This document shows, piece after piece, positions 19,332 through 64,000 of a stretch of 64,000 bases of DNA; the first letter of the stretch is position 1; every line of letters starts with the position of its first letter. The translations under genes and the position numbers were made by a program. Under the pieces are notes generated by a model. It was not told the DNA's origin and made no database searches. It saw nothing but the letters and a program-made list of their open reading frames with translations. The DNA is taken from assembly GCA_002269645.1 (NCBI GenBank), contig NIVC01000581.1, forward strand, positions 248,001 through 312,000. The letters run 5' to 3'. Source of the stretch: Macrostomum lignano (taxonomy: Eukaryota).

Positions 19332-19670
19332 AGTAGTAGATACGATACAAAATTGCCAGCAAACCGTTCTCAGTATTCAAAGAGAATTGATCATTATCAA
19401 GTTGAAATGAATCGTTTTTCACTCCATTATCGCTCGTCTTCACTCCGCTCAACTCGCTCCGCTCATCCTCGCTTCATTCCGCTCAAACACACTTCATTTC
19501 AACTTGATAATGATCAATTCTCTTTGAATACTGAGAATTCGCTCTCGTCGTTCGCTTTAGTTTGCTGGCAATTTTGTATCGTATTCAAAAAGCATCCAAA
19601 CACACACAAACACACACAAACCCGTCGCCCGCGCCGTAGGCGCGAAGGGTCTTTTTCTGTTACTAAAAAT
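19332..19670 (+). repeat. Left terminal inverted repeat (339 bp)
   Basis: Reverse complement of 36431-36769; no differences seen. Confidence 0.95.
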
Positions 19671-19968
19671 GAACCGAGTTTACAACTTTTCAGTAAGTGA
19701 TACTTTTGAGACCGTTGCTAAAAATGCAGAGATAATAAAACAGCACATATTGAATGGAATAATTGAGGAAGTTTATTTAAAATACGACGACAAGCACGAA
19801 CTAAAACTTTATCCTTTAGAGTTAGATGGTTTGTATGATTTAGAACAAGAGGGTGAGTTAATATTTCAACTTGGAGATTATTTAAATTCCGAGGATTGGG
19901 AGGTTAGGTCAACAGATTCCGAATCAACAAATAGTTCTTATGAAACTAGTGATTCAGATAATCTGTAA
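19669..19968 (+). CDS. Polinton hypothetical protein, 99 aa, acidic
   Basis: ATG in TAAAAATG context; open frame. Confidence 0.65.
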   Translation: MNRVYNFSVSDTFETVAKNAEIIKQHILNGIIEEVYLKYDDKHELKLYPLELDGLYDLEQEGELIFQLGDYLNSEDWEVRSTDSESTNSSYETSDSDNL

Positions 19969-19984
19969 AAATATAACTAAAAAA

Positions 19985-20152
19985 ATGAACATAAATTATT
20001 CCTACATTGGCAAAGTTCCAGTTAAAGAACTTCATGAAAATTTAAGTTTGGTAACAGTTGAACAAATGTCAATAATGATATTAGTAGCTACAATAGTAAT
20101 AATATTACTTTTGTTTGTTATAAAAAAATTACTACCTTGTTGCCTTAAGTAA
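19985..20152 (+). CDS. Small single-TM protein, 55 aa
   Basis: AAAAAAATG start; hydrophobic IMILVATIVIILLLFVI. Confidence 0.55.
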   Translation: MNINYSYIGKVPVKELHENLSLVTVEQMSIMILVATIVIILLLFVIKKLLPCCLK

Positions 20153-21745
20153 TTGGCTTTCATAAAACGAACCCAATATTTCTTCACCATCTTTATCAGC
20201 AATGATATAGGTTGTAGGATTTGTATTTAAAACTTTACTAACAGAAAATTTCTCACTTATTTTCTAATATCCTTTTCTTCCCTTTTCAAACTTATCTTTC
20301 CATTTATAGATATAAACAGAATCACCAACTTTAAAAGGTTTATTTTTCTTTTTTTCAAATTCTCCAAAAGTAACTTTAACTTTTTCAGGATTGTTATAAG
20401 CTTGTTGCGGAGTCATATTTATAGCCGAATGAAATGAATTATTATAATCTTTCACTACGTCTAATAATATCTTTACCCATTTTTGGTTACCATTAAGCCT
20501 AAACTCAAACCACAATTTCTTACCTAAAGTTCGATTAAATCTTTCTATTAAAGCGTTTTTGCTTTCGCCATAAATAGAATAAATCTTATTAATATACTCC
20601 CCATTAGCGTCCTTTTTCCTTTCTTTTCCTTTTTCAAAATGATATAATTTATACATATGTGGATTATAAAATTCCTTTCCTTCATCAACACATAAACGTT
20701 CACTTTTTTCTCCAATACTTCTAAAAGCAGAAGCAACCTCGTCTCCTTTTTTGGACTTCAAAGGAACAGCCCACGCATATCGAGTAAAACCATCTAATAT
20801 AGTTAAAATATATTTATATCCCCGATCGGACGGCATAGCCATTAAATCAGCATACCAAATTTCATTCTTTTTAAAGTTCATGATCTTTCTGTAAAATTTC
20901 GGTTTTCGGTATTCTTTGTGAAGAATCTTTGCCTCATCAGAACTTAACCCACCACCACTTAATAGCAAACACTCAACACAATTATTTCCATGTTGATTAT
21001 AATTAATTCCCAAACCAAATTTAACTTTAGACTGCAAAATCTTTTTAACCATCCACCGAGTTAATCTTTGGCCAACCGACAATTCTTGCAGATTATCTAA
21101 TCCTTCAATCATTTTTCTATCGGCTTCATGCTTTAATTTTAATGCTTCCTCAGGAGAGTTCTTATCAGCATCTCTGTATGCTAAGTCATGATAATATGCT
21201 AACCAATCAATTCCGTTAATGGAAATTGAATCTGCTTTTGGAGTTCCATCTGGATTTAATCTCAAATCCAATCTTGTCCCGGGTAGTTTACCCCCAATCT
21301 TTCGATAGAGGCTGGAGCACACCTTAAACGGCTAAATTACCACCCATCTCCGTCTGCTCATCTGAACCTTCTCCATATCGGCCACCGGACGGACTTAGGA
21401 GCTTGGCTGCGCATTGCCACCTTGTCTTCAAGCTTGTTACCTTTGGGAAGAGGAGTTACCTCTGTTCCTTCAAAAGATTTCTCAATTGAAGTGGACTTGA
21501 AGCTGTATGACGGGTTTCACGCAATTTGAAGATGTCGCCACTAATAGTGACTAGCAAGGACATTGACTTCCTCACTCAGGCCACGGATAACCTGCAAACG
21601 AGTACCCTGGAATGTGTAATTCATTTGTATACTTCCCACTAGTAAAAACGCTTGGTAAGCTTGTTAATCCTTTTTGAACATCCAACAAGCCACCTTCATA
21701 CACAAGTTGGTCGTTCCTTCGGATCGCGAACGTTGTTTGGTTCAT
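20132..21745 (-). CDS. PLA2-like domain fused to rve (DDE) integrase. Exon 1 21745-21590, exon 2 21283-20132, with a premature TAG at 20264-20266.
   Basis: Joined frame gives ELHIPGYSFAG|PGTRL...IDWLAYYHDLAY (parvovirus-type PLA2). Integrase motifs WYADL, ILDGFTRYAW, VDEGKEF, LIERFNRTL. Read-through of the stop gives KVLNTNPTTY...GSFYESQL, typical of Polinton integrase C-termini. Confidence 0.9.
21284..21589 (-). ncRNA. Group I self-splicing intron, IC1-like, 306 nt, no internal ORF
   Basis: P AAAUUGCGUG, Q AAUGCGCAGC, R GUUCAGAUGAGCA, S UAAGGUGUGCUCC. P3 CAUCUUC/GGAGAUG, P7 GAGCA/UGCUC, P5abc with GAAA and GUAA loops, P9 with GAAA loop, P1 with U.G at the splice site. Removal restores the frame and the conserved motif. 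Confidence 0.9.
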
Positions 21746-22248
21746 TTTTAATGTCTAAAAAACAATTTTCAATGAGTTTAATTATTTCCAAATATTGATC
21801 ACCATATAAAAATTTTAAAGCAAATTCCCCAGTTAACAGAGTAACACCATTATCAAATACTTTATGTACAGGATTTTTAGTGGTGTTATTAATGCAAATA
21901 TAATATAAATCAAATTCGGGATTGACATATTTAAATTCTAATAACTTCTGAATATTTCTAAATCGACTCGATATTATCAGACTAATATATTATCTGATCT
22001 GTATTATCAGACGATTTTAACTCTAACGCAACTTTTCTTTTAGTATGAATTAAATCAATTCTATTTATTTTTTCAAAACCAAAATATTCAATAGCTAATA
22101 ATTCATAAAGAGATCCAAGCCTCATTTGAATAGTTTTAATACGGTTTGCAATTATTAAATCATCTTGAAATATTTTATTTAGTATTCTATCTGATCCAAT
22201 CTTTTCACAAATGGGTTTACAAAGGTGTCTTTTTATTGCTATATCCAT
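21696..22248 (-). pseudogene. PD-(D/E)xK restriction-endonuclease-like protein, disrupted near 21975-22005
   Basis: IKTIQMRLG...RIDL...VALELKSSDNTD, then in another frame SSRFRNIQKLLEFK...ICINN...GEFALKFLYGD. Confidence 0.6.
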
Positions 22249-22272
22249 TTTATAAAAAACAAATTTAACAAA

Positions 22273-22956
22273 TTAATTAATTCCAGTATGTCCGGCAGCT
22301 TTGGCAGCGGCTAAAACAAGTTTTCGCGGAGTCTTTAATCCTTGCCCAACAGCCCTTTTATTATTTATGGAATCAACAATATGCTTATACAATCTAGTTC
22401 TTTTAACAGCACTTTCACCCAAATCATCATAAAAAATTTTAGCACTTATTAATTCGTCCCGAGTATATAAATCAGGATTAAACTTTACACTAGGGTTTGT
22501 AACAATATTAAATGCTCCACCCAACTCTATATATAAATCATCCCGACTTTTTGTAACCCTAGTACCAACCCGATAATTATCATTCCCTAAATTTATAACA
22601 GCAACACTCGCTGGCGCACCTCTTTGAAATCGCTCAATATCACCACCACGTTCCGCAGCTCTAATCTCTGCAACTCTCAAAACAGCCCGTGCCTCATCAT
22701 AAGTAGGCGGCTCATCCTCCACAATATCTTCCTCTTTTGGCTCCGTATTCTTTGCTATTTTTTCAAGAAGGTCTTTATCAGTTTTTGTTAATTCACTAAT
22801 TTTCCCCGTAATAGGATTAACAAAAGGAGCAGCAAATTTTTCGCCAGCTAACTGTATTCCTAGCTTTCTTTTTTGTAAATCTCTAACAAAATCAGAATAT
22901 CTTTGCTTCTCTTTATAAATCGCCAACTCTCCATCAACGTCCATAAACTGACTCAT
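22273..22956 (-). CDS. Polinton hypothetical protein, 227 aa (possible virion core protein)
   Basis: Intact ORF; AAAAAATG start; C-terminal GQGL motif. Confidence 0.7.
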   Translation of the reverse strand: MSQFMDVDGELAIYKEKQRYSDFVRDLQKRKLGIQLAGEKFAAPFVNPITGKISELTKTDKDLLEKIAKNTEPKEEDIVEDEPPTYDEARAVLRVAEIRAAERGGDIERFQRGAPASVAVINLGNDNYRVGTRVTKSRDDLYIELGGAFNIVTNPSVKFNPDLYTRDELISAKIFYDDLGESAVKRTRLYKHIVDSINNKRAVGQGLKTPRKLVLAAAKAAGHTGIN

Positions 22957-22990
22957 TTTTTAACATAAAAAACTTTTTTAACCTATAAAA

Positions 22991-24472
22991 ATGGCCGAGA
23001 CAAAAACCATTTGGAGTGATAAATTTCATTTCAAAAAACAACGACAGTATATCAATGAGGTCAGATCAAGAGATTTAAATTACACCCAACCAACAAGCGA
23101 TAATTCAAATAACTTTACAACGGGAACAGTAACTTTTGACATTGGTGCAACCAGCAGCATATTGGATATGAAAAATGCGTTTTTCCGAGTTAGGTGGTTG
23201 TATACCAGAAACGATGGAACAGCCCTTACAGCCCCCGATATCGCTGATCGCGCTGGCATTATTATAGAAAATGATTGGTTTTATAAATGTTTTTCCCAAG
23301 CACAACTAACCATTAACGGAGCCGAGGTTGAGACGGCTACAAACCCAGCAGAGATTAATGGAGTTTTGAAACATTTAAATTATACATATTTATCAAAACA
23401 GGTTGGTGATAACGTTGGATGGATGCCTGATAAGGGAGATGGTAGACCATGGATTTTTCCCCAAATAACACCAGCAGCTGGCGCAGACACCGCAGCTCTT
23501 ATTAATTATTTAAATAATAATATAGTTCCGGTTGTAACGGATCTAACCAACACCAAAAATATAAACACTGGTTTTATAGACCGTCGGAATAAATTCCCAG
23601 TCGCGGTTTTAACCACAGCAACCGCTTATGAGGAAGACTTTTCAATCTTTCCACTATTTGGGTTTTTCTCACCAAATCGGGTATGGAAGGGATTAAAATT
23701 TGGGGTACAACTGCAAATATCTGGTGGATATCAGCCCAGGATACTTTTTGGAAGTTCAACCTCAACCGATATTGCAGTTCGAATTGTTTCGATTAAATTA
23801 GTTGTGCCAACTATCGAGGTAACTGCTCCGCTTTTAAAACATATTGATGATCAGATAATGTTAGACCAGGATATATTTTATTTGAATCGCCGCCACTTTA
23901 TGCGAACCATTAATAACAATCAGGATTCATTCCAGTGGCAAATCATACAAACAAAACGTCGGGTGAGGTATATTTTTATTTGGTTTAAAATACCAAACAG
24001 AACTAGCAAAAGAGGAAACGGTGATTTATATTGGCTTCAATCTGGTGATGTAGCAGCTCAAGCAGCCACCGCAAGTGACAACGCGCTTTCGGCGATTAAC
24101 ACATTTAATCTTCAGAACATCCGACTGCAGGTTGATGATCAATATTATCCTGTTAAAAACCCCCTTAATCTAAATGTTGGAAATAATGATGTTAATGATT
24201 TTATAAAATATTATCAGGATTACGTCAAAAACGAAGCCTACGCCATTCCTCAATATACTCCCACAGAGTTTCTAAACATTCACCCCGTGGTTGTTTTTGA
24301 TCTAACCGCACAGAAAGCAAATGTAGCAAATATTGGTTTGAATTATATGTTGGAGATTAATAAAACTGGAAATCAGGCAGTAGACGCCCACGCATTGTTT
24401 CTAGAGGAGTATATGGCGATTGCTAAAGCCGACGGCACCGTTGTTCAGGACGCCCCCATAGGAAAAAGTTAG
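22991..24472 (+). CDS. Major capsid protein (double jelly-roll, Polinton PY/hexon-like), 493 aa
   Basis: Intact ORF of MCP size next to ATPase and minor capsid; beta-rich pattern (VTFDI, FFRVRW, IVSIKLVVP, YIFIWF, VVVFDL). Confidence 0.85.
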   Translation: MAETKTIWSDKFHFKKQRQYINEVRSRDLNYTQPTSDNSNNFTTGTVTFDIGATSSILDMKNAFFRVRWLYTRNDGTALTAPDIADRAGIIIENDWFYKCFSQAQLTINGAEVETATNPAEINGVLKHLNYTYLSKQVGDNVGWMPDKGDGRPWIFPQITPAAGADTAALINYLNNNIVPVVTDLTNTKNINTGFIDRRNKFPVAVLTTATAYEEDFSIFPLFGFFSPNRVWKGLKFGVQLQISGGYQPRILFGSSTSTDIAVRIVSIKLVVPTIEVTAPLLKHIDDQIMLDQDIFYLNRRHFMRTINNNQDSFQWQIIQTKRRVRYIFIWFKIPNRTSKRGNGDLYWLQSGDVAAQAATASDNALSAINTFNLQNIRLQVDDQYYPVKNPLNLNVGNNDVNDFIKYYQDYVKNEAYAIPQYTPTEFLNIHPVVVFDLTAQKANVANIGLNYMLEINKTGNQAVDAHALFLEEYMAIAKADGTVVQDAPIGKS

Positions 24473-24492
24473 TTAATTTATTTCCTTAAAAA

Positions 24493-25263
24493 ATGGTAAA
24501 GCCAAAACATAATAAAATATTTCCCAACGACCCTTTTCTTTGTTTAGTTGTTGGAGGATCAGGTAAAGGAAAAACACACTTTGTTTATGATTTATTAACA
24601 ACCAATGGAATGTTAGATTATAATAATTTAATAATATATACAAATAGACCTAGAATAAAATATTATGAATTTCTTAAACATGGATTAAAAAACAAACTAA
24701 AAAAAGATATTTTATTTAGAATGTTAAGAGCATATGAGCAATATGAGGACGACGATGAACCAAAATTCAAACTTTCTGACATTGAGGGTTTATGTAGAGA
24801 AACTGCGCAGAATCCAGAAAACGTCGACAACAACTCCCCAACGATCCAAATATCAAACAGATTAACCTATGATAAAATCCCAAAAGACGATAAAACATTA
24901 ATTGTATTTGATGATTGTATTTATGATGGTGATCAAGAGTTGCAAAAAGAAATTTTTGTTAGCGGCAGAGGAGATGGAATTGGGGCATTTTATCTTACTC
25001 AATCCTTTAGAGAATTAGATTCAATTATAAAAAAGAATGCTAGCTGTTGTGTAATGTTTGATCTAGATAACTATGATTTAAAAAATATACACGTGAGATT
25101 TAACCCTGGTTTAGATCCAAAACCATTCAAAAGCATGTGTAAAAAAATTTGGGATGACAACCAATACAAACATATTTATATCAACACTAGGTTAGAAAGG
25201 AGAAATAGAATCTTACAAAATTTGATACACGAGGAAGAGGAAGAGGAAGAGGACGAGGAGTAA
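24493..25263 (+). CDS. A32/FtsK-like DNA packaging ATPase, 256 aa
   Basis: Walker A GGSGKGKT, Walker B IVFDD, YLTQSF. Confidence 0.93.
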   Translation: MVKPKHNKIFPNDPFLCLVVGGSGKGKTHFVYDLLTTNGMLDYNNLIIYTNRPRIKYYEFLKHGLKNKLKKDILFRMLRAYEQYEDDDEPKFKLSDIEGLCRETAQNPENVDNNSPTIQISNRLTYDKIPKDDKTLIVFDDCIYDGDQELQKEIFVSGRGDGIGAFYLTQSFRELDSIIKKNASCCVMFDLDNYDLKNIHVRFNPGLDPKPFKSMCKKIWDDNQYKHIYINTRLERRNRILQNLIHEEEEEEEDEE

Positions 25264-25297
25264 TGGTCGGACTTTGGTACTAATTCACACTATAAAA

Positions 25298-26083
25298 ATG
25301 GCAGTGAACCTCGATACAATAAAACAAGTGGTTGATAGAACCAACGCAAGATTTAGTACGACTTTACAATTTGTAATGACAAGCAGCGAGCAAAGGATTC
25401 AATTACGTAACCCACTAACTCTTGATCAGACATTAAGTTATGAAATTGGTTTAATAATGTTTTCAGTTTTTAACATGCCTCAATTGATTAATGCAACAAA
25501 TAATCAATTTAGATATTCTAAAGATTCAGGAGCAAATTGGACAACCATTACTATAACACCGGGCGCATATAACTATACTGATTTGAATACCGTAATACAA
25601 GCTGAGTTAACAGATAATAGTGATTGGGTAGCAGACGCGATTGTTATAGGAGTTGATTTACCATCAGGCAGATTCACACTTACGTTAGCAGCCGGATATC
25701 AGGTTGATTTTACAATTGCCAATTCACTTAGAACCATATTAGGATTTAATTCCCGAATCGTTACCACATCAACCACGGGCGATACCGTGGGAAATATTGA
25801 AGGCGGAGTCAACACAATTAATATTACAACCGATATTTCAAATGGTGGTTATATAACAGATGATAACGGATTCTTGGTTCAGCGCGGAATTATTTATTCA
25901 ATTCCATTTTTAGCTGTGCCAATTGGGGATAAAATGATAGTTGCACCTCAAACCCCAATTTATTATCCACTAAATCAATATAATTTACAATCAATTTATA
26001 TAAGAGTTGTAGATGATTCGGATCGACTTATTAGTTTTGGCGGACAAGCAATAACAATAATTTTAAGAATAAAACAGGTTTAA
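25298..26083 (+). CDS. Minor capsid protein (penton-like), 261 aa
   Basis: ATG in TATAAAAATG at 25298; ITITPGAYN, LGF, IYYPL, IRVVDDSDRLISFGG pattern typical of Polinton mCP. Confidence 0.8.
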   Translation: MAVNLDTIKQVVDRTNARFSTTLQFVMTSSEQRIQLRNPLTLDQTLSYEIGLIMFSVFNMPQLINATNNQFRYSKDSGANWTTITITPGAYNYTDLNTVIQAELTDNSDWVADAIVIGVDLPSGRFTLTLAAGYQVDFTIANSLRTILGFNSRIVTTSTTGDTVGNIEGGVNTINITTDISNGGYITDDNGFLVQRGIIYSIPFLAVPIGDKMIVAPQTPIYYPLNQYNLQSIYIRVVDDSDRLISFGGQAITIILRIKQV

Positions 26084-26093
26084 TATTCTAAAA

Positions 26094-26303
26094 ATGGGTA
26101 ATAGTACCGAAGGTATGATAAAAAATCAAATGGTAAAAGTTCAAAAAGCAAAAGATAATTATGAAATCGAATTAACAAAATTGAAACATCTACAAGCCGA
26201 AAAAACAAGACAGGAACTATTAAAACCCGCGGATAGTCGCCACGTAGTGTCGCGGACTTTGTCCGAGAAACTAACAAAAACAAAGAGTTTTTCAGGAACA
26301 TAA
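26094..26303 (+). CDS. Small coiled-coil protein, 69 aa
   Basis: TAAAAATG start; tightly packed between neighbours. Confidence 0.55.
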   Translation: MGNSTEGMIKNQMVKVQKAKDNYEIELTKLKHLQAEKTRQELLKPADSRHVVSRTLSEKLTKTKSFSGT

Positions 26304-26304
26304 A

Positions 26305-26737
26305 ATGACTATGAGTTGGAATCAGTTCAAACAAAGATATGGAACGGACACAACAAGTAATATTGAATTGACAAACTGGGCGCGGCAATTAAAAATAAAA
26401 CCATTCAGATGTGTTATGCGCGATGAGATAAAAGACTTACCACGATATGGATCTTTCATTGTCAATATTGAAACAACCAAAGAAAATGGTGTACATTGGT
26501 CAGCAGTTTATTCAAAACCCAAACTCGTTTATTTTTTTGATTCATTTGGCCTACCCCCGTTGCATGAAATAAAAGACAAATTTAAATACTAAAAATCGAT
26601 TATGTGGAGATTATCACGAACAGTTTCAAACCTTTGATAAAAGTTATTGTGGACAGGCGGCGTTGTATTTTTTATATAAAATTCGTAACTCGAAAGAAAC
26701 TCCAGAGGATTTTAAAAACATATTGGATTCATTTTAA
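26305..26737 (+). pseudogene. Adenain-like cysteine protease with a 1-nt frameshift at ~26590
   Basis: GVHWSAV (His), YFFDSFG (Asp), and after the shift QFQTFDKSYCG (Gln/Cys). Confidence 0.9.
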
Positions 26738-26760
26738 TATGGTAAAAATGGACTCTAAAA

Positions 26761-28754
26761 ATGTTATTTAGTGGAACACCCTCATGGAACGGAACTTCAA
26801 GAACTGGCGGCGGAGAATCGAGTGGAATAAGTGTTACATTTGGAGACAACCGATATATAAATAAAGACGAAGGTTATAAAAAAGTGAAATCGATACTAAA
26901 TTAAATTTAAAACGGAATGTTGCAGATTCCTATACCAAAACTCAAATCGATAATTCATTAAATTTAAAACGCAATACTGCGGATTCATATAGCAAGACGG
27001 AAATAGATAATTCATTAAATTTAAAACGTAATATATTAGATTCTTATAGTCAAGCCGAAGTTGATTTCGAACTTAATTTAAAACGGAATGTGGCAGATTC
27101 ATATACCAAAACGGAAATTGATAATTCATTAAATTTAAAAAGAGATATAACCGATTCTTATACCAAAACCGAGGTTGATAATTCGTTAAATTTAAAAAGA
27201 GATATAAGCGATTCCTATAGTCAAACTCAAATAGATAACTCCTTAAATTTGAAACGAAATGTCGCGGATTCTTATACCAAAACCGAGGTTGATAATATAG
27301 TCGGGAGCGGAACCCCAAAACAAGATAGGTTCCAAACCGTTCAAACCGGTCATGTACCAACAATGGCTGCTTGGAGTGGAAACGGTTTTGCGATCACAGC
27401 AAGCTCGGCATTTAATACAACCAGCTTTGCAAGTTGGAAAGCTTTTGATGGGGACGACGCAACGGATTGGGCAACTAATGCAACACAAACAGATTACTGG
27501 ATTCAAGTCCAATGTCCATCCGCGATAATGTGTTATAAAATTGATTTGCGTGGTAGACCGTCGCCCTCAACCGAGCACCCTGCTTCATGGCGATTTGAAG
27601 GAAGTAATGACAATACAAGTTATGATGTTTTGATTCCGGCGGCGAGTTCGGCGGAGTTAAATAATTCAACCCAAACATTTAATGTCACACAAAATTTTGA
27701 TAAAGAATATTCATATTTCAAATTGTTTTGTCTTACATCAACATCGGGTTCAACCAATCCAGGCTTATCAACATTTCAGATTTACAGGCAGACTTTTACC
27801 GTTATTGATTTGAATTTAGGAGCAGTAAATCAGTCTATTGATATGGGTGGTAATACAATTACTAATATATCTACTATAAACGATAACACATCTGTTGTGA
27901 CTAAAGGTTATGTCGATACGGTTGTAACACAAACGGCGGACGGTAGAATGTCTTTTAATGATAAAATTAAATTGGATGGTATTCCGGCAATTGATGCCGC
28001 TTTATATGAGCCAGTAATATGTAATTGGAATGGCTATCAAAACCCAACAACTGCTGGCGATATTTTTCCAACTGGGTCTATGGTTGGAAATGCGATTTAT
28101 ATTGATTATCAAAACGGCGCAAGAATTACTGACGAAGGCGCTGGACTCAATGGAGCGTTACAATTTAATTTCACCCATTTCCGTAATGTTTCTGTCTCCT
28201 TCTATTTCCGAGTTGCTAATGCTGCGGGTGGTGGAGCTGGTGCAGACGCCGTTTAGTTTTATGCTTACTGCCACCAACGACCAACAACGGAATATGGATC
28301 TGATTTAACAACCGACGCCGGCTTAATAGTGTTTGCTAGTGAATGGCATGACAGATTCGGCTTGCTTTGGAGTAATAAAAAAGCTGACGGAGCAACCGTC
28401 CGCAATGACGTTCTAAATGACGCCGACCAAACTGTAACCTATGCCAATATTGATAATGGCAATTGGCATCTTTTTGAAATTAATATTCTTAATCAAAGAG
28501 TTTGGTATCAGTTAAGCTCATACAATGTTGCTGGAGATTCTTTGACACTAATTGGGCAAAATGTTTTTACGTATGATAGTGGCACTTGGGGAGATCTAGA
28601 TAAATCCGGAACGCTTATGGGGTTTGGTGCTCGAACCGGAGGAGCGGATGCGGCGCATTTTATTCGTGGAGCAATAGTTTGTGGTAGTACATCATTTGGT
28701 TATACTTTTCCATCTACTCCTTATTTGGAAAGGCCGCCGGTAGCTATCAGCTAA
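26761..28754 (+). pseudogene. Fibre/receptor-binding-like protein: 19-aa repeats, discoidin (F5/8C)-like domain, L-type-lectin-like C-terminus. 1-nt deletion at ~26880 and TAG at 28254-28256.
   Basis: 7+ copies of SYTKTEIDNSLNLKRNVAD; ASSAF...WKAFDGD...W...YWIQV...FEGSND; GADAV*FY...GFGARTGG; ORFs 27090 and 28329 share a frame. Confidence 0.7.
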
Positions 28755-28804
28755 AGCTGCGACCCTACGGGGCGATAAGTTAGTCTAAAATATTTCTATA
28801 TAAA

Positions 28805-29134
28805 ATGGCTTTTAGCAGAACTCCATCAATGCGGCAAGGTAATAATATTATTATTCCGATTCCTAAACAAGAATCAAATATAAAAACTTTTAGATCTCAT
28901 ACCAAAATTTTATTTAGCGGAGTGAATGTTCAAGACAATAAGAAACTTCAGGAGTTAATTAAATTATTAAAAAACCATATTATATTACAAGAGTTTTGGA
29001 AGATTGGATTTAAATGGGAGAAAAAAGAAAGAATAACTCCAATCCAATACTTATTGAGCGCTGGACAGATTCCTAAGGAGCGTGGGGAATTCATTTTGGT
29101 GTTATTAAAAATAGACAAAAATGTCGGTGTCTGA
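28805..29134 (+). CDS. Polinton hypothetical protein, 109 aa
   Basis: TATAAAATG start; intact. Confidence 0.6.
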   Translation: MAFSRTPSMRQGNNIIIPIPKQESNIKTFRSHTKILFSGVNVQDNKKLQELIKLLKNHIILQEFWKIGFKWEKKERITPIQYLLSAGQIPKERGEFILVLLKIDKNVGV

Positions 29135-29803
29135 AGCGGACAGAAAAGAGCGCGATCTATTTAACCAACGTAAAGGACGCATGTTAAGTAATGTCGATCG
29201 AATAAATTATGATTATGATTTATATAGTAAAAAATTAAGAAAGCTTTCAAACCATATCAGGAATATGGATTTTTTCAATATTGGTTTTGGAAGTTTATCA
29301 ATGTTATGTGTAATCGTTTTGGGTATTTTGCAATCGATTCCAACTATTAATTTATCTCAATTATTTTTAGGTATTTCAATTGGTTCAATATCAGGTTTTG
29401 AATTAATAATAAACTTATCAATTCTTTTGGCAATTAAACTATATCTTAAAAAAGAAAGGATAAATATAAATCACTAAGAGATGTTGCTAAACAATATAAA
29501 AATCAGTTATATTTATATGTGCAAAAAATATTAGATGATGGAGAGATTACAATATATGAGTTAACAACCGCGGTTGAGTTATATGATAAATATTTAAAAG
29601 ATAGAAATCGAATTTTAGATATTGAAGCTTTTACCGATATGGAATTGAAAGAATTAAGACTTGACAAACCGAACCCTCCACCTATAGAAACGATCGGACA
29701 AAGTCCGCGTTCCTTCGGAACGATGGAGTACCAGCCTGAGGTTATAGCTGATGGTGTACAAAGCCCACGGTCAGGTAGCACGATAGAACTTCAGGTTGTG
29801 TAA
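29121..29803 (+). pseudogene. Two-TM membrane protein, frameshifted at ~29470
   Basis: Two hydrophobic helices; the downstream frame is open from ~29475 (LRDVAKQYKNQLYLYVQKIL) to 29803. Confidence 0.55.
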
Positions 29804-29827
29804 TTTATTAAAAATATATTCTAAAAA

Positions 29828-30175
29828 ATGGATCAAGGAATAATACATAAAGTTATTTTGGATGCGAACTCCTGCCCGTCTACCAAAGATGTAACCTTTT
29901 ACGTAACGAAAGAAGAATTAAATGTAGAGGATAAAATCCTTTTTAAAATGGCTTCGGTAGATGGTATAAATATATATACGCAGATGTTGGATGGTTCTTA
30001 TCCATGCTACTTTTTTGGTGTATATATTATTAAAAATTATGTTAGGGGGTTGGTTGGTATTCCCCAAAAAAACCTGCCACAATATATGCAAGAAGAATTT
30101 GTTTTATATGGTGCTCCATTTAGTATTAAAAGTGTGGAAATAATTAATTTAGAGAGTTTAAGAAATTCTATGTAG
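29828..30175 (+). CDS. Polinton hypothetical protein, 115 aa
   Basis: TAAAAAATG start; intact. Confidence 0.6.
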   Translation: MDQGIIHKVILDANSCPSTKDVTFYVTKEELNVEDKILFKMASVDGINIYTQMLDGSYPCYFFGVYIIKNYVRGLVGIPQKNLPQYMQEEFVLYGAPFSIKSVEIINLESLRNSM

Positions 30176-30698
30176 ACCCATCAGTAACTTTTTTAATACA
30201 TAAGTTATATATTCTTCCCACAATGGTAATTGCCTTTTGATTCGAGGTTCAAATTTTTTATCAATACATAAAAATACCAATGACTTTTTCAATAACATTT
30301 CACTTGGGATATTTCTGATCCTTATATGTTTTGTGTTCTCTCTCATAAGAAAATTGAAATAATATCCAACCAGAGTTAAAATCCTCTCGGAGTCTTTCGA
30401 ACTTAATCCTTTTCCTTTATTTAAATGAAAAAAGTTATTATATAAATAAACATTATTTCCGGGGATGGCATTAATTTGTGTGCCGTCTGGCATTTGAAGG
30501 GATGGGTGTGAAATGTCACATGATAAATTTCTTATAATTGTGTTTTTGAAATAGTAATATGAGTTTTCAATCTTTTTTGTTTTTTTCAAATTGATATATC
30601 TTAGCGCATGAATAACACATGTGATATATATCTCAATTTGCTGTTTGTCCTCTTTGCATAGTAATATTACATTTATTACATTCATATCTGTGTTTCAT
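30158..30698 (-). pseudogene. Hypothetical protein, probably with an N-terminal CxxC...CxxC zinc ribbon, disrupted
   Basis: AAAAAAATG at 30698 reads MKHRYECNKC...AN*DIYHMCYSC; the C-terminal part is in the 30158-30685 frame. Confidence 0.4.
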
Positions 30699-30724
30699 TT
30701 TTTTATTATTTTTTTAGAATAAAA

Positions 30725-31048
30725 ATGGAAACCTGGTTCAAAACCGATTCTAATAAAATTAATTTTCTAACCACCAATTCTCTGGTGCCGAAGGAGTATG
30801 ATATAATATGTTTAAGACAGGTTAAATTTATCGGAATTCAATCGATATTTTTACAACTAAACGGTGGAACAATACTATGCTTAAGCGGCGATGAGGTTAA
30901 AGAATTCCCAACGATTGTTATAAATAAACCTAAAACTTTTATTATGAAATACTCACCAACGGATGGTTTGCAATTTAAACAAAGACAAGCAATAAACAAA
31001 AAGGTTGACAGGACTGTAAAATTGGCTGCTGTTTGGGAGGAAGACTAA
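30725..31048 (+). CDS. Polinton hypothetical protein, 107 aa
   Basis: TAAAAATG start; intact. Confidence 0.6.
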   Translation: METWFKTDSNKINFLTTNSLVPKEYDIICLRQVKFIGIQSIFLQLNGGTILCLSGDEVKEFPTIVINKPKTFIMKYSPTDGLQFKQRQAINKKVDRTVKLAAVWEED

Positions 31049-31063
31049 ATTTTTTATAAGAAA

Positions 31064-31329
31064 ATGGCGAGCGTAAAAAACCTTCTGTGCACTCACAATA
31101 AAGAAATGAATGATATTAATAAAAAATTAAATATAATTAACGAACAGAAATATAGTGATTATGGAGACCGAACGAAGTTCGCGTATCTTTACGATGATAT
31201 GTTTCCGATTCGATATGAATTAGAAAAAAGAGAACTTTTATAAAAGCCGCAATTGCTTATGCTGAAACCGTTATTGAAAATGAGATAGATCGTCTTGTTA
31301 GACGAATAAAAATACTTCGAAAAAAGTAA
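31064..31329 (+). pseudogene. Small helical protein, frameshifted at ~31240
   Basis: AAAATG start; continuation KAAIAYAETVIENEID in a shifted frame. Confidence 0.4.
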
Positions 31330-31424
31330 AAGAGTGTTTAAGTTATCCTGACGATTGCGAAGATAATTGGTGTTCTATAAAATATGAAATGGAAATGGAT
31401 ATTCTACTTAAGGAATTACATGCT

Positions 31425-34400
31425 TTAGTTTTTTATAAGTGCTAGTTCATCAATATCAAACTCAAAACAATTATAATCAACATCAAAAAGTAAGCTGTTA
31501 TAATATTCAATTGTATGTTCATGTTCCGGTTTGTCATCAAAATAATTTTTAAAGAATGGTTTCATAATTCCTTTTTTATCCGGTTTTTCTCTTTTATAAG
31601 TATTAATTGATGGTGTATATGTTTTTGATATAAAACCTTGACCAATTGTTATACCACCTTCAAACGATCGTTTCCATGGGGCGTTATTATTTACTTTTAT
31701 TGATTGACCATCATATAAAGTTTTAAACGATGCAAAATTAACCCTATCGTTTGCACAACCTTTAAATGTTTTTTTCTCTTCCAATATAAAACCGTCTTTC
31801 AACAAAAGACAATATTTAATTTTAGGAGCGATAAAATATCCGAATATAATTCCGCCCTCTCCATAATCGTTTTTTCCTTGACTTAAATTATTTCCGACGT
31901 GCCCATTTTTATTTAATGTATCCCAATGTTTTTTATGTATATATAATGAATCGGTGTCTCCGTAATAAATTTCTGGATTCTTTGATCCGTCGATTGATGT
32001 GATAAAATTATTCATAATTCTTCTTGAATGAGCTAAAATAAATATGCCTAATTGAGCAGAACAAAGTCCGGTTGTTGGATTGTCGTCGTCTTCTATATAT
32101 TCTTGCGTGTCTTTCTTTTTTTCTACATAAAATAAGTCGTCACATATTTTCTCATATGACTTGATTGTGTCGTCGTATTCATTTTTTAATGTATTCAAAT
32201 TCCAGAGATGTGTTGTGAAAGTAATGTCTCTTTGAACTGTTTTACCATATAATGAATTTAATAGTGTTTTTATCAATTCAGAACCCGCCTCATTATTTTC
32301 TTTTTTAAATACTTTTCTCATTTTTTCTCATTTCAAAAAGATTTGTAATATAATTCTGAAACGGAGAGAAATCGTAATTTTTCTCATATACAATTCCACT
32401 ATATATCTTTAATATTTTACCACCCATTCTTACGATTTCTTGTATGTCTACCGAGCAAAGGGTGTCGATTACCTTTCCGTTTCTGAACCTATTTAATGTT
32501 TTTGTTTCGTTTGCTTTTGTCTCCGGATTATAAAATTTCTCTTTGTCCTTAGATGGGAGATGCTGAAGAAAAACGGTGTTAGGATTTTCATACATAATCT
32601 TTAAAATCGCTGTTTTTGGTCGAAACGTTTGGGAATTAAACTGTGACAAAAAATATTTTTCCTCGCTTATATCAAACACCCTACCACTTTCTGCTCTTGG
32701 GTATTCACTATCTTTATCAGACATGGCGGATGGGTACAATGACACCCCATCAAAGTTCATTAAACAATCAGATACAGTACCCAATTCGTTTTTTAATTTA
32801 ATTGCAATTTTCTTTTTTTCTTCCATATCGCTTTTGAGATAAGTTGATATAACCTCGCATGGGTCGGCTGTTGGTGTTTTTAAGTGGTCTTTTACAACGT
32901 CTACAATTGTTTGAAAACATTCGCTTTCGTATTTATTTATTAGTGCAAATACTCTGCCTCCTTTGACTGCCTCCCGCATAAATCTTCTTATATAGGGGTC
33001 AATATGAGAGTAAACAGAAAATTCTTTTCTTAATAATGTTTGATATTTCGTTTTTTCAAGCTTAGACAAGTCAAAATAATCTTCTATTTTCAATGGAGAA
33101 ATTATTTGTTCGACTTTCTTAATATAGTTGGTTTTTTCTTTTGTCTTTAGGTATTCTTTCATTTTGTCTTCCACTCTAACAAAATCTTTAAACCAACATT
33201 TTAATGTTAAACTTGAACATGTAAGAGTATCAAACATTGTCATGCCTCCAATTGCATATGCGATTTCGTTATACTTATGAATACAAGCACACAAAGAAAT
33301 AAGATCAAATTGTAAATATTCATACCATTCATCAATCCGTTCTAGATAATCGTCCTCAGTAATGTCATGCACCATTGATGTCTTGCGCAAATCCTCTCTA
33401 ATTGTCATTGACGAACAAAACTTTTTTAAACTCATTGAGGCGTGTTGATATGAACAAAGCATCGTAATGGTTTGTTTTGAATCCTTATGTTTCTTCTTTT
33501 TATCTTTGTTTATAAACGCTGATACCTCTTTTGACATATAATCATTAACAAAAGTTATTGATAATATTCCTCTGGGGGTTTTAAGAATTTTAATTGGTTT
33601 TATGTTGCAAAATAGTGGTATATAAGAATCAAAGCGGGATGAGTTATGGGCGATCAAAACAATCTTTTTTGACTTAACTGAACCAAGGTATTTAAACATT
33701 TTTCTAACGCAGTCCGTTTTTGTTCCGTCTGTTTTGAAATCACATCCGCGATCTGAAATCAAGATCTTAGTTAATTTCTTTATCGACTCTGGGCTTTCGT
33801 TACAATTATTAGAAAAGTCATTATAGTTTAAAAGACCAACAGCATACGGACATGCTTGTTGATTATCGTTTAAATATGTTTCAAAATCAAATATGTATAC
33901 GTTTGATTTATTTGGATTTGTCGGAGTATTAAACATTTTTATCTCTTGCACACTATCCGATTTTGGGTTTTTAAATACTACTTTATAATTCTCTTTTATC
34001 CAATCAAGACCAATTCCTCGTTGTTTATTGGATATGAGGCAATAATGTCCAATATGATAATCAGCTGCGTGGTAGTAATTTATTAATAACCAATCGTGGT
34101 GGATGCCTCTTTGTGACTTTGGTTCTATTCCCCGATTATTAGGGTTATACATAAACCTATGTTCAAATTAAAATGCTCATTGAATTTTCCAATTCTTGAA
34201 TTTGTCATTATGCCTCTTTGAGTTCTTGAGTTGTACAACCAAGCGCCATATTCTTCTTTAGACGGTGTGTTATCACCATAAATAAATTTAACACACTTAT
34301 AGAAGCAATTACCATCACTAGGTATGAAACAATACTCATCCTGATACTCTGCAATTTCACACATGACGTTTGTGCCCATACCTTGCTTTGACCTTTCGTG

Positions 34401-35018
34401 TTTAATCGTAATGACGTTTGGTGTCATTTTAAGTCTTCCAGAAAACACGCTTAGATTCATATCATAGTTTTCTACCAAATGTTTAAACCAAGCTTGAAAC
34501 TGACTTATATTATAAAATGTTGCTAAGTATTGATTAATTTCTTCCCGATCATCGCCGGTTTTGTTATAAAAATATTGTACTCTCGCGTTAGTAATTTCAA
34601 CACTATATCCGTTTGAAAGTTGTGTTTCAATAAAGTCTAAGACATTCTGCATTGGTTCAAACCTATATACTCGAATAAATTCTTCTAGTGGTTGTTCAGA
34701 CGATTTAATGTTTGTTTTCCGACGTTGGGTTTTCTTTTGATTTTTTTCTAGCTCTGCTATTCTTTTTTCATATTCGGCCTTTTCTATTAATCGTTTCATT
34801 TCATATTCTGCCCTTATATCATTTGCTAATGCTTTTATTTGTTGTTCTTGTATTTCTCTTTCTCTTTGTCTCTCTCTTTGTCTTTGTCTTGCTCTTTGCC
34901 GACGGTGCTGTCTTTGGCGCTGTTCAATTTGTTCAACCTGTCTTTGTAATCGATTGAACTGTTCGCGCTCGTTTGCAAGAAGTTGTCGAATCTGATCTGG
35001 GGTCAGTCTTTGTTCCAT
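31425..35018 (-). pseudogene. Protein-primed family B DNA polymerase in three pieces (frameshift at ~34150; 10-bp duplication at 32313-32332)
   Basis: Exo I IFDFET, Exo II AHNSSRFD, Exo III YLQFD, KGGRV, DGVSLYPSAM, KTLLNSLYGK, YGDTDS. Confidence 0.95.
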
Positions 35019-35105
35019 TTTATAGAATAAAATTTATACAATATTTACTACCCTACTCGAGTTGCGCTTTTGGTAAAATTAGCCCGCTGCCTGAAACGTT
35101 TGCAT

Positions 35106-36010
35106 TTAAAAAATTCCAGATCCCGCTTTTGGTCTCATTTCAAGATATAAGCCGCTTCCGTCGTGCTTTTCAATTATGTTAAAATCTTTTCCTAATTTAT
35201 TAAAAATCTTCTGAACAGCTGGCCTAAAATTGGCTCCGATATTATCAAAAAATCCTTTAGCTTTTTTGCCGGTTTTTTCCAAAGTTTGTCCGAATTCGTG
35301 TAATTTATCTGCTACAACCCCGCTTCCGTGGGTCGTTCCTTGTAAGATTAAACCCTTTCCAGCCGCTAATTTAGCTTCTGCATTTCTTTTTTGTTCTGCT
35401 GTTGCCGAACTACTATTAATAGTATCAATCAGTTTTTGTTTAAATTGAGCATCCTGAGTTATTTGCTGTCTTTGGAATTCAGCCTCTCGTTTGGCTTTTT
35501 CATCCGCAGCTTTTTTGTCGTTTACTGCTTTTGCAATTCCAGCCGCCCCACCTGCTACTCCACCAGCTGCTCCGATTCCTGCAAAAATTATTGGGAGCAA
35601 AGTTGCAAGCGGAAGTATACCCCCCTGTTTTGCTTTTAATTCTCCTAGCTGTTTTCGATTATCATGAATTCTTTTGGCTGCTAAACCAGTTGCTCCAGCT
35701 GCTCCCAGTCCTAAAAGAATTGGTAGAATGGGCAATAATCCACCGTCCTTTTTAGTATGAGTCTCCAATAAAAATTTCACATCGGATTCCGTTAACCTAT
35801 AGTTTTTATTGTTATGCTTAAATGAAATTGGCCTTCCTTCTTGTGCATATTTTGCAGCGAGTTTAAAAGTATCGATATTATAATCTAATTTTTTACCTAA
35901 ACGATCTAATCTTTTTAACATTGAATGACTCTGTTTATTATCATCCAAGTTTAAGGTGTCTACTATTTCTCCTATAAAATATAGGCGCCCTTCATCATTA
36001 ACTGCGTTAT
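35106..36010 (-). CDS. Adenovirus pX-like / membrane-active virion core protein; original ATG apparently lost
   Basis: Two GG-[LI]LP hydrophobic Gly/Ala-rich segments (GGLLPILPILLGLGAAGA; GGILPLATLLPIIFAGIGAAG) resembling the pX C-terminus; frame open back to TATAAAAAT-AAC (one G short of ATG). Confidence 0.6.
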
Positions 36011-36020
36011 TTTTATATTA

Positions 36021-36422
36021 CTAAAACTTCTTTAATCCTTTTCCACCTTTAATGGTAGTTAGCATTTTATTAAAATCTTGGATATCTTTATTACTTATTG
36101 GGTTGGTTTTAGTGGGTGTTTCAGTAGGTTGTGCGGCTTCTTGTGCTAATTTTAAATCTTTTATTGCTTTTATTTGTGAGAGGGTGTCGTTAAATTCTCT
36201 CCATTTTTTAAGTTCCTCCGCTGCCCTAGCCGCTTCTATTCCGCCCTTTACCGCATTTGTTATAGAGCCTGCAGCCGAGCCCGCTTGTCCTATCAAGCCC
36301 ATATTATCTTTAACCAAATTTGCTGCTGATCCTATCACATCAAAAAGACCCTCACCTCGGTATTCAACTGGGTCTCCTACTTGCAATTCATTTAGATTGG
36401 ATAGTTGGGTAATGTGTGTCAT
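36021..36422 (-). CDS. Polinton hypothetical (possible core) protein, 133 aa
   Basis: AAAAATG start next to the TIR; GEGL and GKGL motifs; amphipathic Gly/Ala segment. Confidence 0.6.
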   Translation of the reverse strand: MTHITQLSNLNELQVGDPVEYRGEGLFDVIGSAANLVKDNMGLIGQAGSAAGSITNAVKGGIEAARAAEELKKWREFNDTLSQIKAIKDLKLAQEAAQPTETPTKTNPISNKDIQDFNKMLTTIKGGKGLKKF

Positions 36423-36430
36423 TTTTGTCT

Positions 36431-36769
36431 ATTTTTAGTAACAGAAAAAGACCCTTCGCGCCTACGGCGCGGGCGACGGGTTTGTGTGTGTTTGTGTGTG
36501 TTTGGATGCTTTTTGAATACGATACAAAATTGCCAGCAAACTAAAGCGAACGACGAGAGCGAATTCTCAGTATTCAAAGAGAATTGATCATTATCAAGTT
36601 GAAATGAAGTGTGTTTGAGCGGAATGAAGCGAGGATGAGCGGAGCGAGTTGAGCGGAGTGAAGACGAGCGATAATGGAGTGAAAAACGATTCATTTCAAC
36701 TTGATAATGATCAATTCTCTTTGAATACTGAGAACGGTTTGCTGGCAATTTTGTATCGTATCTACTACT
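36431..36769 (-). repeat. Right terminal inverted repeat (339 bp)
   Basis: Reverse complement of 19332-19670. Confidence 0.95.
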
Positions 36770-38170: not shown

Positions 38171-41100
38171 ATGCAGCCCAGATCGCCCAGATCGCTTGTT
38201 AATTTGGTTTTGCTGCTCCTTTTGGCCGCACTGATTTATGCAGTAAGCACCCGCTTCATGGCACCGACGGCACTGAGTCAACAACAACAGTTGAAGCCAA
38301 CAAAAAACCGAGCCAACGATGTACCGAGTCAACAGCAGCAACAGTTGAAGGCGAATCCAACCGAAAAAACTGTCGTGGCGTCGTTTTATCGGAAATGCGG
38401 CTATGCTGCAGTTCACCGCCAGGAGCAGGTGAGACGATCTGTGCGGGCTGTTCCAGCTGCTACGCAGGTTTTTTTTACCCCAATTAGTACCCCACACTAA
38501 TGGGTGCGCGTCTTGTTTGTCATAGAGGAAATGGCACCCTCAGTTTTCCTTCCCCCGGAGCGATAATGGAACAGTGGGATAGTGGGGTGCCCTGGTCCCC
38601 ACGCAGTTCTTCTTCTGTCTAAAATCTCATCAAGCGCACATATGGTTATACTGACTGCTCAGTACAAATGAAATATATATATATGGTTGATGAATTAGGA
38701 AAACTGATGAATGTGTAGCGAAAAATAATTCAATCAGCATACCATGCAGAAAGCTAATAAGCCAGGAAACAGTCACTTCTGCACAGCATTTGGTTGTAGC
38801 AACAGGGCCTCAAGTTCGTCAGCAATCTCATTTCACTCCTTCTTGAAGGACAATGATTTTAAGAAAAAATGAATAGCTGCTCTCCACCGCGAAGATTTCA
38901 AACCTTCAAAGCATTCCAAGGTGTGCTCTGAGCACTTTTCTCCAGAGTGTTTTGTGCAACCTGTAGAAGGATTTCGGCCATTGGAACGGAAGCGACTCTA
39001 TCCGGAAGCAGTGCCCTCTATTTTCCCGGCTTTCCGAGTCATTTGAGTAGCACTCCTGCGAAGACGATAAAGACAATGACTTCGGCTGCTGCTGGCCAAA
39101 TCGACTTCTCAAGCTTCATCAAGGATGCCGAGGAAAATGCGCCCTCACAGCTGGCTGAAGAGGAAAGTGCGACGGCTCAATCTGAGGCCGCACCCGCTGA
39201 TGACTGCCACCAAAACTGTGCCAGTAAGGAGCTGTTTAATAAGAAAGTGAAGGCTTTGAGAAATCTTCGGCGCCGGTACAGGAGGCTTACACAGGCAAGT
39301 GACGATTCTAAAGTAATGACCCGTTCTTTGCAACTTGCGCGTGAGCAACTGGAGAGAAAATATAGAAGCATTTGCCGTCTGCGGTCCAAGAATTCGCGCT
39401 TAAAAAGTAAGGCGAAATCACTGCTTCAGCTGATCACGTCGCTAAAGGGACAAAATGTCCTTTCTGCAGCTGAGGCTTCGCGACTGAACTTTCTGGCATG
39501 CAACTCTCTTCTTAATAGCTTGCTGTCCCAGAAGAATCCGCGCTCAAAGAAATTCTCTCCTGAAGTAAAGAAGTTTGCCTCGACATTGCACTTTTACAGT
39601 GCAAAGGCGTACCAGTATGTCCGTAAATGCTTTTAACTTCCTCATCCTGCTACACTTCGCCGATGAACATCAAATGTCAAATGTCTTGCCGGATTTTGCG
39701 AATCATCCTTCCAAGAGCTTTCAAGACGACGCAACTCGCCTGGTGCAGAAGCTTTTGCCTACTGTAATGTGGTGGCAGATGAAATGTCACTTGAGAAGCT
39801 GATCGAATGGGATTCCTGTGAAGGCAAATTCTTTGGCTACGTGGACAAGGGCGACGGAGCAGTGACTGATAAGGAGGCCACCTCTTCGCTTGTAATTATA
39901 GCCGTTGGACTCAAAAGCAACTGGAAGCTGCCTCTTGGTTACTTCTTAGTCAATGGCGTCAAGAGTGACTTTCTGTCCAATGTAATTGAAGAGGCCATTG
40001 CACGCTTGTATCAGATTGGCATCATTGCGGCATCGTTCACGTGTGACGGAACGCAGCATAATATCAGAGCAATGGAAATCTTTGGCGCTAGTCTTGGTGC
40101 AATTGATGAAATCAGGGCCTCGTTCCAGCACCCGTGCGACCAGACGATCTCTGTTGCAACTTTTCTGGATGCGGCTCACATGCTCAAGCTGCTGCGCAAC
40201 CAGTGGCAAGCACTTGGAAGGATTGTGTGGCCAGGTAGAGGTAGAATTGAATGGCAGTATATACGTGAGCCTTCTACGGGAAGTTCAAGAGCGCCACGGC
40301 CTGGGCAATAAGCTGAGCAGGTTTCACATTAATTTTAGCAATCTAAAAATGAAGGTCTATCTCGCCGCACAGCTCTTCAGCGAGTCTGTTGCCGACTCAC
40401 TGCGCTGGGTCCATCAACAGCAATTCCCTGGATTCGAGCATCCTGATGTACTTATAACCGCAGACTTTGTCGAACGCATCAACGATCTGTTCGATGCATT
40501 CAATTCAAAACAGCTTGTGAACTACAAATCGAAAATGGGCCTGAGAGCTGACAATGAGCAAAAGTGGCAGACCTTCTTCGATGACTGCATCAGTATGCTT
40601 GCGAGCCTGGAGACAGTCAGCAGTCAGAAAATCATTTCCACTCTAAAGAAAACTGGCTTTCTCGGCTTCATCAGCAACAGCCATGCAGTGATTTCACTCG
40701 CTCAGTTTCTCTTTTCAACTAGTGACTTTTTTCCTGTTGAAATACAAGTTGTCCTAAGATTTTCTCGAATTGTTTTTAACGCCATTCGGCTTCGCAACGG
40801 ATGGAATCACAACCCGACTCCCAGACAATTCCGATTTGCTTTTCGCCAGCTGCTGGTCCACGCAGGCACTGGAATCATTCCATCGGCAGGTGCCAACGTC
40901 AGACAGCAGGATGAGACTGTACAACTGTCTCTACTTTGTTTGCAGTCATCAGCGGATTCCAGTTCTCAACTTCTATGGAGTCCTATGCCTGTGCTGAACT
41001 CAGTTGGAAAGCGTGTGGATTCGATTCAGCACTGCAGCTCCTTGTCAACTTGCGAGATGTGCCAGTCCGTTGTGCACTATATAGGAGGAGCTGTGGTTCG

Positions 41101-62700: not shown

Positions 62701-64000
62701 GTTCCGGCCCTTCTGCACGATTGTCTCCCACACAGGGCAAAGGAAATAGCGATCTCCGACTGCCTGGCCCCAGGTGTTAAGCAGAGTCTGCTTGTCGGGA
62801 CTGCCGATGTAGTCGTCGAAGTACAGATTGATAAAGTCCGTGCCAGTTTCGCTCAGTTTGCGAGGGAATCGCGGGTGGTAAGGGAAAGTTCGGTTGAGAA
62901 GCTGAAAATGAATTACGGTTCCAATCATGAATTTTAACCGTTTGGTATTTGTAGAAAACGCACTAAAATTTGGTCAAATTACTATTTACCTGCGTGTAGG
63001 TTTCTGCATCAATGTCAGCGAGGGTTAGATTCTGGTTCACCAGGGCTTGTTCAACATAGCTTCCACCGGTGTCAGTTGTGAATCCCATTAGCATTTCAGT
63101 GTTTGACGAGCCTTGCTCCTGGTGCCTCCAAGCCTCAAGTGGGTCGCGGTTGTTGAAGAAGGCACTATCCAGCACAGGTCTAAACTCTAGAGTGAGAAGT
63201 AGCTGCAGGAATGGAGTTTGAGCGTCCACAATATTTTTAGTATCCAGAGTTTTAAGGCAGGTGATGGCCTCGGAGATATTAGTACTTGGGCAGCCAAGCG
63301 CGAGGGACACGAATGCAAGGTTCAGCTCTCGGGTGTTTTCCTTGCCTCCGTTGCTGTCGTACCAGGCCATTGGCATTGTTGGCGAGCCACCCATCATGAT
63401 CGCTCGCTTGAAATTCTGCTTCGATGCGGTGATGCTGTGGAATCCAACGGCTGCTGCTCCGATGCCGTGGCCAGCTAGTGCAATGTTCTCGGGGTCTCCA
63501 CCGAACATGCTGATGTACCTCTTCACCTCGTTCAACGCCAGACGCTGATCCAACAAACCCATGTTTCCAGGAAGCTCGCTATCGCTAAGATATAGGAAGC
63601 CGAATGCGCCCAGCCGGTAGGCCACAGTGACTAGAACAACATCCTCGTACGAGAGAAGATTCTCACCGAACAGTTCGCGCTGACTGATGGAGCCGGATTC
63701 AAAGTTCCCGCCGTGAAGGTAAACAATCACTGGGTAGTTGCGTCCTTGAACTGCACCGGGCGTCCAGATGTTTAGGTACAGACAGTCTTCAGAGTATGCT
63801 ACACCAAGAGTGCGATTGTCTTGTGGACAAGCATGAGGCAGCGTTTGAGCAATAAATGTGCCCGGACTGTTGGGAATAGCTCTCGGCGGAGCAAATCGGA
63901 GGTCTCCGACAGGAGGTTCCGCATACGGCACGCCCAGAAATCGAGAGATGTTCTTCATTCCGTTTGGTGTGAGAACGCGATGTCCGACGATTGAAAGGTC
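59741..64000 (-). CDS. Cholinesterase-like adhesion-type membrane protein with at least two tandem non-catalytic carboxylesterase domains, a Thr-rich stalk, TM helix and short tail; 5' end outside the window
   Basis: Two sets of FLGV.YA.PP.GDLRF, EDCL.LNIW, HGG.F..GS, YRLGAFGFL, GNMGL.DQ, FGGD; nucleophile elbows GHGIG and GAEAG; TM ALVTVIPILGVALIGLAIFVVV. Confidence 0.85.

Follow-up and report, generated by a model that had tools for sequence, protein, structure and literature searches.

The stretch of DNA analysed here (hereafter the window) comprises 64,000 nucleotides of the Macrostomum lignano contig NIVC01000581.1 and contains a Polinton (Maverick) element with terminal inverted repeats of 339 nt that are 100% complementary and a 6-bp target duplication, CGCAAC (Table 1). 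Pfam searches of the element detected pPolB (PF03175, E 2.5e-7) and the A32 ATPase (PF04665, E 1.6e-6) together with an rve integrase (PF00665, E 9e-7) under the Pfam cut-off, while a 493-aa ORF at 22991-24472 gave no informative Pfam match. The PolB gene is split over three ORFs (31425-35033) and the integrase ends early (20264), yet the terminal repeats are identical. Contig C4485 has the same PolB and integrase breaks, and in addition its ATPase gene holds an insert of 5.2 kb (L079, 285-5492) without counterpart in the window (24785-24789). Genes near the Polinton include AMOP and cholinesterase-like genes whose named matches are nearly all animal (33-45% identity), which points to an animal host, and the window further contains fragmented tandem intronless carboxylesterase genes (59741-63958) and a fragmented P-element-type transposase (39076-41227).

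The full fusion protein encoded by the intron-bearing gene can be read in a natural intronless copy, where Pfam recognizes a PLA2-like domain (PF08398, 31.6 bits in copy L033) and rve (PF00665). Exon 2 of the window copy ends after 339 codons and the intronless copies run longer. The intron sits in the PLA2 portion of the gene, outside the integrase domain, and splits a G-P-G motif. An ATG at 21112 inside exon 2 is a possible splicing-independent start for the integrase.

The window intron was matched by the Rfam model RF00028 with 45.5 bits (E 7e-10; gathering score 50 bits). Its fold contains the P3-P7 core and the P4-P6 domain, with compensatory pairs in P2, P3 and P9, and no endonuclease is encoded within its 306 nt. 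The interrupted gene exists uninterrupted in three natural copies, with junctions reading GCA GGT CCC GGG (L031, L032) or GCA GGC CCG GGG (L033), and these show that the 3′ splice site directly follows A21284. The original prediction had placed the site there from the reading frame, P10 and P9.0, and the intronless copies uphold it independently; the AG/CU pairing of P9.0 and the retained equivalent of the Tetrahymena G264-C311 pair, both of which it had also described, are present. Among the copies scored, the U.G pair of P1 at the 5′ splice site was found in 77/77 introns ending in A (omega-A) and 28/28 ending in G (omega-G), and the G-C guanosine-binding pair of P7 was kept in 105/105. Omega-G is regarded as near-invariant in group I introns; the window intron ends in A. 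The peripheral domains P5abc, P2.1 and P9.1/P9.2 are features of the IC1 subgroup, of which P5abc and P2.1 are present in the window intron and P9.1/P9.2 are absent. P2, P2.1, P5abc with its A-rich bulge, P9.0 and the G264-C311 pair are shared with the Tetrahymena IC1 intron, from which the present introns differ by the missing P9.1/P9.2, by P7 pairs 266-309 and 267-308 and base 306, and by ending mostly in omega-A.

Table 1. Positions of the Polinton, its intron-bearing gene and the intron elements in the window
Feature	Position	Strand	Basis or remark
Polinton (Maverick) bearing the intron	19332..36769	.	Terminal repeats, target duplication, pPolB, A32 ATPase and rve matches
Exon 2	20264..21283	-	PGTRLDLR start; phospholipase A2-like domain fused to rve integrase
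Omega nucleotide A	21284..21284	-	Last intron base by intronless copies
Group I intron, 306 nt, P5abc-type, no internal ORF	21284..21589	-	RF00028 match; intronless copies; fold
P9.0, AG 21313-21312 with CU 21286-21285, around P9 GAAA hairpin 21311-21292	21285..21313	-	
P7 3′ strand UGCUCC	21314..21319	-	C311-equivalent at 21315
P7 5′ strand GA(U)GAGCA	21355..21362	-	G264-equivalent at 21359
Extra U in P7 bulge	21360..21360	-	Private to window copy, or assembly error
Internal guide sequence	21577..21589	-	P1 21581-21577; P10 strand 21589-21582
Exon 1 of PLA2-integrase fusion	21590..21745	-	Ends ...HIPGYSFAG; gives U of U.G splice pair
Free-standing Eco47II-like nuclease gene just upstream of exon 1	21696..22272	-	Split near 21985 in window copy

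The omega nucleotide and the P7 bulge in the intron family

We searched the host genome assembly (764 Mb) with a sequence pattern that took P7 and exon 2 as its anchors. Of 111 family copies, 82 end in A, 29 in G and none in C or U; these counts are lower bounds, and some of the contigs counted, such as C581/C4485, are duplicates or alleles of one another (omega-G, 31 rows minus 2 unrelated; non-G, 89 rows minus 4 duplicates and 3 unrelated). The original prediction had left a choice between a G-to-A decay mutation and a natural variant. Decay of a single copy can be rejected, since 82 of 111 copies share the terminal A and their flanking exons are under selection; as the majority state of the family, omega-A is rather a natural variant. 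Sequences were compared for a non-random set of 107 loci (78 omega-A, 29 omega-G) made up of 30 best matches, 20 copies picked mostly for G, and 57 omega-A copies. The omega state changes at least six times on the intron tree and at least four times on the exon-2 tree, from which we conclude that the copies recombine, and two intron haplotypes are identical except at omega. Recombination or homing is the likely cause of this scattered distribution.

The P7 sequence GAGCA/UGCUC occurs in A- and G-ending copies alike (27/28 omega-G family copies). A P7 pocket specific for A is ruled out, as the same P7 is found in the omega-G copies and in omega-G introns of giant viruses; at most, the family-wide P7 permits omega-A without requiring it.

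The extra U in the P7 bulge, visible at 21360 in the window as originally described, turned out to be private to this copy. The P7 region has 114 matches in the genome, and among the 100 that were listed the window copy alone has the extra base; among the copies scored it was seen in 1/105. Contig C4485, with the same insertion site and flanks, 99.9% identity to the window and omega-A, is without it, and four public runs, all of contigs, omit it in 4/4 cases at the full depth covering 21360. The U is therefore not a family trait. One-base indels are frequent in this assembly; the extra U was either inserted in this copy alone or reflects an assembly error, and it forms no part of a variant pocket. 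The suggestion that it remodels the guanosine-binding pocket is thus left unsupported. The proposed comparison with sister copies, expected under simple decay to give a one-base bulge together with omega-G, confirmed the bulge, but most sisters have omega-A. That terminal A and extra U were joined, either by decay of one copy or in a special adenosine pocket, can be regarded as refuted: both occur in the window copy, which bears other breaks, but omega-A is found in 82 copies and the U in one, so that the two are independent traits, and the copy at the same site has A without U.

Contigs in two of the public runs (X1, X2) share the ends of the intron but continue into dissimilar sequence, with loose ends at 21361, 21548 and 21584, which hints at further intron variants outside the copies examined. 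Among the rows listed for the four runs, three of them presumably RNA, no exon-exon junction appeared, which speaks neither for nor against splicing. A loose end in run X3 resembled a spliced piece, but the intron and exon 1 of the matching copy type would both have aligned.

Probable splicing of the A-ending introns

Judged from patterns of sequence conservation, the omega-A introns probably still splice, in all likelihood with lower efficiency than those ending in G, and we hold this to be the best-founded reading. In the omega-A copies, purifying selection continues to act on the codons that flank the intron. Pairwise pN/pS among 78 omega-A copies was 0.066 for PLA2, 0.032 for the first eight codons after omega and 0.277 for exon 1; omega-G copies gave similar values of 0.057, 0 and 0.261, respectively. 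Codons were considered specific to omega-A when present in at least two omega-A copies and absent from all others, with the exons analysed separately. Their ratio of synonymous to nonsynonymous changes was 15:9 in PLA2 (p 6e-5) and 7:2 in exon 1 (p 0.001), and the integrase had 31 synonymous and 29 nonsynonymous changes (p 4e-8). Exon-1 singletons appear neutral (5 to 12), which counts against this reading. Of the PLA2 motif, the His-Asp (H32, D33 of exon 2) and the Tyr (Y36) are conserved in 78/78 omega-A copies, and exon 2 is free of stops and frameshifts for 300 codons in 52/76 omega-A vs 18/28 omega-G copies (p 0.81). In the ribozyme, P7 pairs are kept in 77/77 omega-A copies, all five P3 combinations are still paired, and variation is shared among omega-A copies at 6/69 core vs 56/235 peripheral columns. 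In unspliced RNA the first stop falls at codon 1 to 7 in 105/105 copies, so that production of the phospholipase and of the integrase fused to it would depend on splicing.

Because the copies recombine, those with omega-A could have acquired selected exon variants from others that end in G or have no intron, whether or not these were sampled. A rather unlikely alternative is that omega-A introns fail to complete splicing and that their elements travel as passengers, relying on protein made by omega-G or intronless copies (or on integrase made from an internal start), with exons that look selected through continued import of working sequence by recombination or homing. The mosaic intron and exon-2 trees would fit such a scenario, and the 29 omega-G and 3 intronless copies are possible helpers. 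Nuclease genes adjoin the intron-bearing gene, the internal ATG is at hand, and one exon haplotype accounts for 46 of the 78 sampled omega-A copies, so that one burst could suffice. However, codons private to omega-A copies remain biased towards synonymous change. In-register exon haplotypes number 20 after omega-A and 9 after omega-G, and the 20 found within 15 nt of omega-A differ by almost no amino-acid change. Broken frames are not in excess, core and P9.0 are conserved, and not a single omega-C or omega-U has appeared.

In Tetrahymena, changes of omega-G to A strongly slow exon ligation. If the A-ending introns do splice, the first step would take place with free guanosine bound at the intact P7 G-C pair; the use of guanosine is probable since this pair is unchanged. 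In the second step P9.0 and P10, rather than binding of omega, would position the 3′ splice site, so that either purine might be tolerated at omega. The GAGCA/UGCUC P7 is preceded by a G in J8/7, which in Tetrahymena numbering alters the 306.266-309 layer under the pocket. P9.0 is intact in 82/82 omega-A vs 16/29 omega-G copies, with CU kept in all 82 of the former, and a P10 pair at exon base +3 was found in 15/20 omega-A vs 2/9 omega-G haplotypes (p 0.014; 6 indel copies dropped). These patterns are consistent with A-ending introns leaning on both helices. The links of P9.0 and P10 to omega involve adjacent bases and just four independent pairs, on which sign tests for compensation were not significant (p 0.25 and 1). 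P9.0 and P10 have been described to strengthen 3′-site binding (PMC2588497). According to a further source, the P7 G-C pair defines the 3′ splice site via omega-G (PMC5192423), which counts against the reading favoured here.

Host A-to-I editing might offer another route, in which omega-A becomes inosine in the precursor and fits the unchanged guanosine pocket, with splicing made dependent on the host. A and G are the sole omega states, the pocket is identical in both kinds of copies, and omega, in a nuclear element of an animal, is flanked by the helices P9.0 and P10. Inosine is a weak guanosine substitute and ADAR prefers a 5′ U. Omega is, however, unpaired and the helices beside it are short, the mitochondrial ND5-717 intron splices with omega-A, and the literature search listed no precedent; we consider editing improbable. 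Still further down the scale we place removal of the intron by the spliceosome via a CAG|GU donor overlapping the 5′ splice site. In nearly all copies this donor precedes the group I site by 2 nt. Nevertheless, the in-frame AG acceptors of most copies are 16 or 49 nt within exon 2 and their use would delete PGTRL, the most strongly selected part, 15/105 copies have no in-frame acceptor, and the ribozyme core is conserved.

Returning to splicing by the ribozyme, we can sketch a wider picture, although as a whole it is doubtful. Polinton-borne group I ribozymes might have colonised the chromosomes of an animal, and the omega-G rule might have been relaxed in one of their lineages, where a rebuilt P7 layer or host A-to-I editing might let A-ending introns ligate exons, and the A and G alleles might act as a tunable throttle on an entry phospholipase and the integrase.

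A sister intron and the adjoining nucleases

A search of the host genome with RF00028 revealed 28 matches stronger than the window copy. We examined 27 of these (L138-L152, L158-L169), all from a second Polinton family whose intron interrupts PLA2 at the same position and scores 72.7-91 bits; an example can be found at G000:C4052:44100-47500. P7 of the second family is near-canonical (GACUU/AAGUC-type) and omega is G in 29/29. The contrast of 82/111 with 0/29 omega-A introns compares two lineages, and its p value is no independent test. In four second-family introns that were read fully, P1 and P2 match those of the window, and an Eco47II-like PD-(D/E)XK nuclease ORF in the P2.1 loop reads into the core. 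This intron-borne nuclease scored over the Pfam cut-off (PF09553, 28.3 bits).

The free-standing nuclease of the window family is 64% identical to the intron-borne one, and an unsplit relative of the window gene (L005) matched Pfam RE_Eco47II under the cut-off (E 0.0013). Across the family (L001-L033) the slot upstream of exon 1, at 21696-22272 in the window, is occupied by an Eco47II-like gene, an HNH-like zinc-finger nuclease or an unrelated ORF (L025); the intronless copies likewise have an HNH-like gene there. The intron has likely spread by homing, a view suggested by the Eco47II-like nuclease inside the second-family intron and by its relative or an HNH-like gene adjoining the window family.

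The exon-1 codons just ahead of the intron (window 21590-21625; L001-L137) differ in the amino acids they encode, reading HIPGYSFAG, HLPSMNFTG or HIPSYNFAG, while at the start of exon 2 synonymous change has reached saturation, a pattern to be expected close to the target of a nuclease. Both exon 1 and the loops of the intron repeatedly contain small hairpin inserts of about 30 nt, many of them in frame, that resemble mobile double-hairpin elements. Their sites are 21707-21736 in the window, the P5 loop (L045, L048, L053, L138), P6a (L152) and exon 1 (L084, L132).

Comparison with known systems

Nuclear group I introns have been described as confined to microbial rRNA genes (PMC3679873). Literature listings, which are thin in subscription journals, gave no report of group I introns in the Polintons or nuclear genes of animals, and we found no description of the host setting in which the omega-A introns occur here. 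The present introns thereby place group I introns in a protein gene of animal nuclear DNA, with a restriction-enzyme-like nuclease seen both within and beside introns at the same site. A protein search of viral contigs revealed no related locus, and 20 metagenome matches to the intron core included two Rfam group I matches and no Polinton.

Introns of protist Polinton-like viruses (Rhodomonas, Paulinella, Desmodesmus) likewise belong to RF00028 and measure about 300-380 nt (PMC12220804). The section of that report on these introns names protist hosts only, places the Rhodomonas intron in a small gene that precedes the capsid gene, and makes no mention of omega (PMC12220804), whereas the window intron has an animal host and lies in a PLA2-integrase gene. 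Group I introns are also found in giant viruses, for example in the chlorovirus TFIIS gene (PMC7019647). Four giant-virus-like contigs (L035, L037, L060, L066) share the GAGCA/UGCUC P7 and J8/7 with the window family; their introns lie before an RNA-polymerase-like (F)DGDEMN motif and after nuclease-like ORFs and, unlike the window intron, end in G where the exon is readable. With a fifth contig (L072) included, all have this P7, each intron follows a nuclease-like ORF, and most precede the polymerase-like motif. Concerning the gene itself, a parvovirus VP1-like PLA2 in an animal Polinton has been described as adintovirus PLA2X (PMC8502044). PLA2 is here fused to the rve integrase instead of a C-terminal pX domain (PMC8502044), and a weak pX match occurs in a separate ORF. 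Intronless PLA2-integrase fusions also occur elsewhere (P0123, P0125-P0128).

The closest likeness for a terminal A is the ND5-717 intron of hexacoral mitochondria, which has omega-A and whose exons are ligated correctly in vivo with more than 70% of the RNA unspliced (PMC6545197). It shares with the window family a natural omega-A in a protein-coding gene, and its ligation in vivo is of low efficiency (PMC6545197, PMC8146996). ND5-717 is mitochondrial, obligatory and vertically inherited with omega-A, whereas the window intron is nuclear-integrated, viral and optional, with A and G segregating. ND5-717, the sole natural omega-A exception we found in print, is a large mitochondrial intron for which these sources describe no twin ending in G. 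In the genome studied here, a compact 300-nt intron occurs naturally in about 80 alleles that end in A and 29 that end in G. Alleles lacking the intron and the canonical sister intron can serve as controls, and the choice of a 3′ splice site without omega-G thereby becomes directly testable.
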